A stretch of 64,000 nt of DNA from assembly GCF_003334305.1 (NCBI RefSeq), contig NZ_QOWS01000004.1; one strand, given 5' to 3'. Position numbers: made by a program. How positions within the stretch are numbered: position 1 is the stretch's first letter; each line of letters starts with the position of its first letter. Below are positions 55,101 to 58,100 of this stretch, piece by piece. This DNA is from Escherichia coli (lineage in GTDB: Bacteria > Pseudomonadota > Gammaproteobacteria > Enterobacterales > Enterobacteriaceae).

Positions 55101-58100
55101 AGATTGCTCTAACCGCTGCTCAATAGCAGAATATAGCCTTGCTTTTTCCGCTCGTGGAGATGAAACGAGTGCATCTGCAGGGAACATCTGCGATATTTGA
55201 ATATCAGGCTTACCCGGTAGATTGTAGATTTTTAGCCAATCCACCGCAGAAGCAAAATCCGTTGGTTCGACAAATATTGAAAATCCTGTTTTGCCTTGAT
55301 CCTTCTTTTCAGCATTAATATTATGTCTTTGTAAAACAGCAAGGACATCATTAGCTTGCTGTTGATCAAGATGGTTCAATAATTCCTGCTGCTTGCAGCC
55401 GCACAACAGCAGGATAAACAATAATAATGATATATATTTCATGAGCGGGTCAACGTCTCAACTGCAGCGACAATCTTTCTTGCTAATGTTCCACCAATGA
55501 AACCTCGACATTATAATTAAGCACATGATCCTGCAAGACTAATAATTTTTCAGGAGTTAACCCCTCTTTATCAGACCTTAATGCTTGTAACGCATTTTGC
55601 TGCCAATTTTCAGTTTGTACAGCATAGTTGGCAAAAGCGGAGATCATTTTATCATCCGGGTTGTCAAGATTGAGAACCCGGTCATTTAAATCAATCACTT
55701 TCGCTTGCTGTATTTCATGAGCAGTTGATTGCTCAGCTCTATCAATAGGTGGCATATTGCTTACTGACATAATAAAATCCTTATCCAGTTTAGCGGAAGT
55801 TTTGTATGATTGCTGAATCAAGATCTTTATACGCTTTTACAACGTTAGATTGCGCATTTCGATATAATGTATACTCAGCTAATGCACTTTGATATTCGGC
55901 AAGAAATTTCGTGTCGGAGGGATTGGTTGGCTAAATCCTCCAACGCTTTTTCAACTTGCTGGTTCAGATCATCAACGCCCTGATCAAATTGATTGCTGAT
56001 ATCCATAATATAACCATTCCAATCTGCCATAAGTCCTCCTCAATTATTCCTGAAATGTCCAGTTGCTACCTTGAGACTTCTCGAATCGGTTACCTCCGTA
56101 GCTAAATGAACTATTATTTGTGTCCTGATTTTTCAAATTCACATTAAATCTTACATATTGTTTACCCCATTGTTTATAATATTCGTCAACATAGTTATTA
56201 ATTTTATTTAATTCACTGTCACTTAACGTACCAATGATATTGAAATACACATTGTTAGCTGTTTTATATTTTTCATAAGAAAGACCTATCGCTGACAACG
56301 TTTCAATAGCCTGACTTTCCAATACATTATCATCTAATACCGCAATACTTATATTGCTGGCATATGGCATAGTTTGCAGTAATCCTTTAATAAGATTATC
56401 GATTAGTTGCTGTGTGATAGCGTTCCGTTGCTTACTCACTGTCAATCTTAGATTACTGGCATCTAATAGTTGAAGTTTAAAATATTGTAAATCAGGGAAA
56501 TTATCAGCAAGCCATGAAAAAATTCGTATCGATTCATCATCAGGATTTATCACCCGTACTGGCTTTCCTGGTTGATTTTTTTCCAGTGCTTGTTTGACCC
56601 AGACTGCTTCATCCAAAATATTGGTATTAATATAGATAACATGATCTCTACCATATAAAACTTCATAATTCCTGTTTTGTTTACAAGAATTTTATCGATA
56701 TGTCTCAGCTGCGGATCATTACTGGCATTAACAATATAAAAAGCAATAAAAATGATAGCAAAAAGAAAAAAAAAGCATTACATACTTAAACAGCTTACTG
56801 CTAAAGAAATGTTGTTTTGTAGAAATAATGTTATTTTCAATAATGCCTGGCAATGAATACTGCCAAACTTCATTTTTTTCTTTTACAGCAAATTTGAGAC
56901 CTAAAACTTCTATTTGCTGATTCAATGTTAACGTTCTATCTTCAGGTTCTTGTGCTGTTAATTCTCTGAATGTTACTACCAGATCAGGGTCGGTAGTAAT
57001 TATTATCTCAAAACTACCTGTAAGCTCGCCATAAGGAACGACTATTGTGTTTTCTGGTAACTCAGAAAAAGCATCACTTCTTCCTAACGAAACATCATTA
57101 CCAATGATAACAAGTAGACGCCCATTAAGTATTTCATACTCGCATCCATTCAATGGTCCGCTCAACAAACGAATGGCATAAGATTCCAATAAGTCTTGTG
57201 ATAAGAATTTATCATTATTTTCCATGAATACCACCCGCTAATTCCATAAGCTCTAGTTTAGAGTAGTGTAACAAGACGGAAATTTCATGACCAAATTATG
57301 ATGACACAGAATAAAAAAATTATAATTTCGAGAACTATTTTAAATGCCTCTATGCATAACTTTATTTACAATTTAAGGTATAAACCCTATTCCCTCAATG
57401 TTAAGCAAATATAACAATTACTCTTATTTTAAATTTTACACGTAATATTTACCCTAAATGATTTTAGAGTACAGGTTGGCATATGCAAGTCTTTTCCAGT
57501 GATGTCTACTTCACTGTAGGCACTAATGCATTATTAGCATCCCAAAAAGAATATTACAGCGATTTAGTTGCGTTGGTTGATCTTGGACATTCGTTCGTTG
57601 TTATTGATGAGCATCAACATCGAAATCTCAAACCAAATACAGAACCTGTAAACATCCTTTTGAGCAACAATTTCATCAGGATCAATAAGAATATTACATT
57701 ATCTGATTTAACGCATTTCCTGGTTTCAAATCTTCATACACAAAATGTGTATTCCACACAAGAACCACTTACCCATGATGAGATAGATATCCTGCGTTTA
57801 TGTGTTTCATATTCATTAAAGCAAATTGCCATTATTAAAGGAATTGATTATAAAACAGTATCATATCACAAAATAAGAGCCCTAAATAAACTTAACATAA
57901 AAGGTACTGTTGAGTTGTTTATAGCACTCTGTGAATGGGATAAACATTATGTTAAACTCCAATCTTGCGTAAGAGAAAGTTGATATGTCATTAGTAGGAT
58001 ATAATAGTAAAATCATAATAACCATCGCGCTGATATCGTTGCTCTCTGCATGCACCAGAGAAAATTCATTAAAGGAGAATCAAAATAAAAGAAGTGGCGA

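Follow-up and report, generated by a model that had tools for sequence, protein, structure and literature searches.

The eprI locus and its reading frames

The stretch analysed here (the window) comprises 64,000 nucleotides of Escherichia coli contig NZ_QOWS01000004.1 and carries, on its minus strand, a copy of eprI, the gene for the needle subunit, SctF, of type III secretion system ETT2, which is homologous to prgI and mxiH. The locus is found at 55790..56030 and has 241 nt, while the intact gene has 240. A first reading of this DNA, made without database searches (the sequence-only reading), had proposed that eprI is inactivated at this location by a single-nucleotide insertion. The alignments confirm the extent of the locus and the nature of the lesion, which is one extra C relative to the intact alleles. 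Compared with the 240-nt alleles of O157:H7 493/89, LHM10-1 and ECONIH1, this C is the sole indel of the gene, and these alignments contain no compensating second indel within eprI. The intact alleles have the codons GAT TTA GCA ACC AAT, where the window has GAT TTA GCC AAC CAA T, so that GCA ACC AAT is changed to GCC AAC CAA T and CAACCAA becomes a tandem CCAA-CCAA. The lesion is located at 55929..55930 (minus strand) and the inserted base is either C of 55930/55929, which are not distinguishable; both belong to the GCCAACC of 55931-55925, where the shift had been placed.

Translation of the first frame gives MADWNGYIMDISNQFDQGVDDLNQQVEKALEDLA, followed by the out-of-frame residues NQSLRHEISCRISKCIS and a stop, and translation of the next (+1) frame gives TNPSDTKFLAEYQSALAEYTLYRNAQSNVVKAYKDLDSAIIQNFR and a stop. 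The residual open reading frame (ORF), at 55875..56030 of the minus strand, therefore has 51 codons for amino acids, of which 34 specify authentic N-terminal residues and 17 are out of frame before the stop. The N-terminal and C-terminal parts are in different frames, as first proposed, but the native residues kept are 34 and not 35: codon 34, GCA in the intact alleles and GCC here, specifies Ala in either form. The C-terminal half (T35-R79 and the stop), which includes the turn and the polymerisation helix, is encoded at 55790..55927 of the same strand in the +1 frame. This frame has no ATG, GTG or TTG start codon, and the ORF list (minimum of 20 amino acids) contains none that ends at 55790, so the C-terminal half cannot be made independently and its separate translation was rejected. 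A strong Shine-Dalgarno sequence, GAGGAGG, is retained at 56035..56041 (minus strand) and precedes the eprI ATG by 4 nt.

The last residue in frame is number 34, which places the break two codons ahead of the P-S-D-x turn between the helices, and the entire C-terminal helix is thus lost. Needle subunits are two-helix hairpins of about 80 residues with a P-(S/D)-(D/N)-P turn, and eprI does not encode this hairpin in one frame; the C-terminal helix (...AIIQNFR), which is encoded at 55790-55927 in the +1 frame without an initiation codon, is not translated. In PrgI and MxiH, the C-terminal helix is needed for filament assembly.

An RNA hairpin (UUGGAGG ... CCCUCCGA) can be drawn at about 55905-55946 of the minus strand, and its loop contains the insertion site. 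Folding of 111 nt gives z = -3.06 compared with shuffled sequences, and the hairpin may be no more than a by-product of the coding sequence.

Removal of one C gives a conceptual product of 79 amino acids, the repaired EprI, which was compared with the needle family. The sequence-only reading had suggested an alignment to intact eprI, PrgI and MxiH, and all of these match the repaired gene. Repaired EprI matches Salmonella PrgI from end to end (residues 3-79 to 4-80) with E = 1e-27 and Shigella MxiH with E ~1e-22, values that put its homology to the needle family far beyond chance. The NCBIfam models NF011854 and TIGR02105, which describe needle subunits (PrgI/MxiH/EprI) with curated cut-offs, are both passed by the repaired protein, with 116.5 bits (cut-off 96) and 99 bits (cut-off 41.7), respectively. 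The actual 51-residue ORF fails both, with 37.9 and 28.8 bits, and spans only profile positions 4-37 of 80. Judged by these scores, the eprI DNA descends from the SctF needle family, but its predicted product is not a member. The position of the gene is that of the family, as the order eprH - eprI - eprJ - eprK - orgA on the minus strand is of the prgHIJK-orgAB type.

The closest known counterpart is EprI of O157:H7 (ECs3718; WP_000796272.1), which is an intact ETT2 needle subunit encoded by the same 240-nt gene at the same locus between eprH and eprJ. The window allele differs from that of O157:H7 493/89 by six substitutions and the insertion, and the repaired proteins differ only by K13N and P40T. 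The O157:H7 gene lacks the extra C, whereas the C at 55929/55930 leaves only 34/79 residues of the window gene in frame. With PrgI (Salmonella SPI-1) and MxiH (Shigella), the window gene shares the YRNAQSN...AIIQNFR C-terminus, the PSD turn and the prgHIJK-orgAB gene order; unlike them, it is a pseudogene, its island is degenerate, and the fourth residue of its turn in the repaired frame is Thr and not Pro. Codon 40 of this frame (55911-55913, minus strand) is ACG (Thr) in the clade that has the insertion and CCG (Pro) in intact EprI and PrgI, so the turn reads PSDT in the window and PSDP in the intact proteins. The Pro40 to Thr change is downstream of the frameshift and affects the final position of the conserved PSDP turn, and K13N of repaired EprI is also clade-specific. 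Both substitutions fit relaxed constraint in the insertion clade.

Distribution of the insertion allele

The population sample comprises 5426 complete E. coli genomes. The 421-bp eprI region is present in 3099/5426 of them, with 1485 genomes at ≥99% identity over a 421-nt span and 1614 at 95-99%, a class with a 420-nt span among the matches listed. A 42-mer that crosses the insertion and ends just past it is found exactly in 1476/5426 genomes, which include O104:H4 and O91:H21, and 944 genomes match it with one base fewer. The identity classes and the 42-mer counts together point to one haplotype clade that carries the insertion. From the named serotypes and from the literature we infer that this clade appears to be phylogroup B1.

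The eprI allele is identical over all 241 nt in the window, in strains H15 and AUSMDU00014361 and in O104:H4 FDAARGOS_348. The 24 kb at 40000-64000 of the window are 100.0% identical to E. coli A7, which comes from orangutan faeces, and in that genome the Prokaryotic Genome Annotation Pipeline (PGAP) labels the same coordinates "needle complex protein, frameshifted". The same frameshift flag is present on eprI in H15, O104:H4 and AUSMDU00014361. A continuous ORF of 79-80 codons, which the sequence-only reading had named as the result that would overturn it, is not what these genomes contain: the frameshifted allele is found in 1476 of them, and the flag stands in the 100%-identical A7.

The ETT2 island and its other lesions

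The window at 35699-64000 is 99.975% identical to strain H15, from lysA to just short of tRNA-Gly, and corresponds to the ETT2 island. ETT2 is the second type III secretion system of E. coli and is for the most part defunct. The island is at the site described for degenerate ETT2, by tRNA-Gly (glyU) and between pkgA and yqeG; in H15, the tRNA-Gly is just past the position where the window ends. Each ETT2 gene was compared with an intact reference and with the PGAP annotation of A7. Damage of the kind known from degenerate ETT2 is found in epaO, epaS, eprH, eprI, eprJ, orgA, orgB, ygeK and ygeF. Intact genes are pkgA, epaP, epaQ, epaR, etrA, eprK, an iagB-like transglycosylase gene, ygeI, ygeH, ygeG and yqeK.

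All features described next are on the minus strand, unless stated otherwise. The eprH pseudogene (prgH-like inner ring, 56044..57225) has a stop at codon 166 (56728-56730), in a stretch with a +1 indel at one end and a -1 indel at the other. The eprJ pseudogene (sctI inner rod, 55439..55770) has lost one G in GGTGGGAAC, at about 55492, and its C-terminus is altered. The same eprJ lesion is present in O104:H4, and it is thus as old as the eprI insertion; eprJ of AUSMDU00014361 is flagged as frameshifted at the same 332-nt length. EprI and EprJ, which are both NAIP/NLRC4 ligands of ETT2, are accordingly both predicted to be dead in the insertion clade. The eprK gene (sctJ inner-membrane ring lipoprotein, 54708..55442) is intact by comparison with the reference and by the A7 annotation. 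The orgA pseudogene (54113..54692) has two 1-nt deletions near its 3' end and is intact in O104:H4. The epaS pseudogene (sctU export switch, 58339..59458) also has two 1-nt deletions, the epaO pseudogene (sctQ, 61161..62148) has a stop at codon 28, and the ygeK pseudogene (LuxR-type regulator, 52612..53244) has an internal stop at codon 52.

The island also has the common deletion of eivJICAEGF, whose scar is a 3' remnant of eivJ at 62108..62227, which abuts the end of pkgA and was identified by alignment of the junction and by the A7 annotation. The stop codon of pkgA is directly joined to the last ~120 nt of eivJ (scar at ~62227-62240), and PGAP labels the EivJ remnant of A7 as 'missing N-terminus'. 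DNA alignment shows that the junction is identical in the window, H15 and LHM10-1. In ECONIH1, the corresponding region retains the sctN ATPase gene upstream of eivJ, and the deleted block also includes the genes of the secretin and of the major export gate. With the eiv block deleted, an intact eprI would still not permit the assembly of an injectisome.

On the plus strand, at 52090-52593, the gene of the iagB-like lytic transglycosylase is intact and 504 nt long in both the window and A7, and it has 503 nt and a frameshift flag in H15. This 1-nt difference would fit the single gap in the alignment of the window with H15.

Origin and meaning of the lesion

The gene at 55790..56030 is best read as a genuine, vertically inherited ETT2 needle pseudogene, produced by an insertion of single origin that most likely reflects neutral decay in an island already lacking essential parts; we give this reading a probability of roughly 0.94. 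The extra C after codon 33 shifts the frame just ahead of the inter-helix turn, and ribosomes that start from the retained ATG and Shine-Dalgarno sequence would produce a 51-residue peptide that has the N-terminal helix only and is probably inert. The C-terminal helix would be left untranslated; it is this helix that builds the filament and that NAIP1/NLRC4 senses. The insertion would have occurred once and become fixed in a large clade, apparently phylogroup B1, in an island that, with the eiv genes gone, would already have been unable to assemble an injectisome, so that the event would be one of neutral mutational attrition. No evidence that contradicts this reading was found.

The comparison of strains gives a probable order of these events. 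LHM10-1 has the identical eiv junction and yet uninterrupted eprH, eprI, eprJ and eprK, from which we infer that the eiv deletion probably preceded the eprI insertion. O104:H4 and AUSMDU00014361 have the eprI, eprJ, ygeK and epaS lesions, while their eprH and orgA are intact. The eprH stop and the 1-nt deletions of orgA are absent from these two genomes, which have the same eprI allele, but are shared by the window, A7 and H15; the window lesions in eprH and orgA thus arose later and are restricted to a sublineage.

Four points limit parts of this account. The 42-mer search missed about 680 of the genomes with the eprI region, and these are in neither allele count. The assignment of the 1476 carriers to phylogroup B1 comes from named serotypes and published work. 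The order with the deletion first presumes that the island has not recombined internally. In LHM10-1, whose 'intact' eprI allele is the closest one, the gene has an ATA start (L004:9091-9093) and not ATG, and PGAP annotates it as a normal coding sequence; with this start it may be poorly translated and may itself be impaired.

The sequence-only reading had also stated that loss of the needle protein alone would abolish secretion. This is sound in principle, as seen with prgI and mxiH null mutants, but it is moot here, with the eiv block deleted and epaO, epaS, eprH, eprJ, orgA, orgB and ygeK broken. The eprI insertion is not the decisive lesion of ETT2 in the window.

The explanation that survives best beside neutral decay is adaptive loss, in which the eprI and eprJ frameshifts were selected for removing ligands of the NAIP1 and NAIP2/NLRC4 inflammasomes. 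Cytosolic EprI activates NAIP1/NLRC4 (PMC4854738), a review reports that EprI and EprJ both activate the NLRC4 inflammasome (PMC11068852), and the two frameshifts are clade-wide, whereas O104:H4 and AUSMDU00014361 still have undamaged copies of eprH and orgA. However, with the eiv genes deleted the proteins have no route to the host cytosol, and so there is little to select against. The damage to ygeK and epaS is also clade-wide, as indiscriminate decay predicts, and recurrent independent inactivation is not in evidence, so that adaptive loss is very unlikely. Equally improbable is the broader proposal that the eprI and eprJ frameshifts are non-neutral, either through this selection for ligand removal or because low-level +1 shifting or the 51-residue N-terminal peptide retains some function other than secretion, in a lineage in which the degenerate ETT2 continues to influence phenotypes.

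Programmed +1 ribosomal frameshifting, which would restore full-length EprI, is less probable still. Skipping the A after GCC would yield the authentic EprI sequence (...DLA-TNPSDT...), the GCC codon is preceded, at 5 nt, by an SD-like GGAGG, and the local RNA hairpin described above brackets the site. Recoding of the prfB type needs a P-site codon that can re-pair and a slow A-site codon, and the spacing of the Shine-Dalgarno sequence in prfB is 3 nt. At eprI, the P-site GCC, read by tRNA-Ala, cannot re-pair as CCA, and the A-site AAC is a common Asn codon, neither a stop nor rare. GGAGG, whose spacing differs from the 3 nt of prfB, is also found in intact alleles, where it encodes L-E-D, and it belongs, like the hairpin, to the intact coding sequence. 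The shift is limited to one haplotype of ≥99% identity and is not conserved in diverged homologues, as O157:H7, ECONIH1, LHM10-1 (95-99%), PrgI and MxiH are all single-frame, and the partners of the needle, eprH, eprJ and the eiv genes, are themselves dead. Transcriptional slippage was also considered and rejected, as the site has no homopolymer run.

That the extra C is a sequencing or assembly artefact and the real eprI intact has a negligible probability: 1-base indels are frequent on some platforms and resequencing had been suggested, but the same allele is found in 1476 independently sequenced complete genomes, which excludes a sequencing error, it is 100% identical in the four aligned strains, and the site is a CC dinucleotide with no long homopolymer.

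Decay of this kind is also what the literature on ETT2 describes, for which Ren et al. 2004 is reportedly the primary paper on attrition. Leimbach et al. 2017 (PMC5422975) describe the eivJICAEGF deletion and phylogeny-linked pseudogenes, among which eprJI, orgB and epaO are named; the eprJI pseudogenes track the phylogeny, and eprI annotations show significant enrichment in phylogroup A relative to B1. Section 12 of that paper prints B2, but the strains and statistics of the study deal with phylogroups A, B1 and E, with tests of A against B1, so that B1 was probably meant. In Archer et al. 2011 (PMC3032704), ETT2 is listed as inactive in every B1 strain compared, and frameshifts are reported in reviews to be widespread in ETT2 (including PMC11068852). 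The epr genes are not covered by Fox et al. 2020 (PMC7058095). The window shares with the 'mutational attrition' isoforms of ETT2 (PMC5422975, PMC3032704) the eivJICAEGF deletion, the phylogeny-linked pseudogenes and the inactivity of ETT2 in B1. Nothing material differs from these published isoforms, except that neither paper states at which nucleotide the lesion of eprI lies; here the position is 55929/55930. The eprI pseudogene is ordinary, already annotated, already published and lineage-wide.

Beyond correct annotation, the importance of the lesion is small. The extra C, found at the GCA ACC site, might be used as a simple lineage marker, and the lesion explains why eprI is called 'absent' or depleted in B1 in pan-genome analyses although its DNA is present. 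In the lineage of the window, which is apparently B1, ETT2 is unable to build a needle. Phenotypes linked to ETT2 in this lineage must therefore stem from surviving regulators (etrA, ygeH, yqeH, yqeI) or from other intact genes, and not from secretion.
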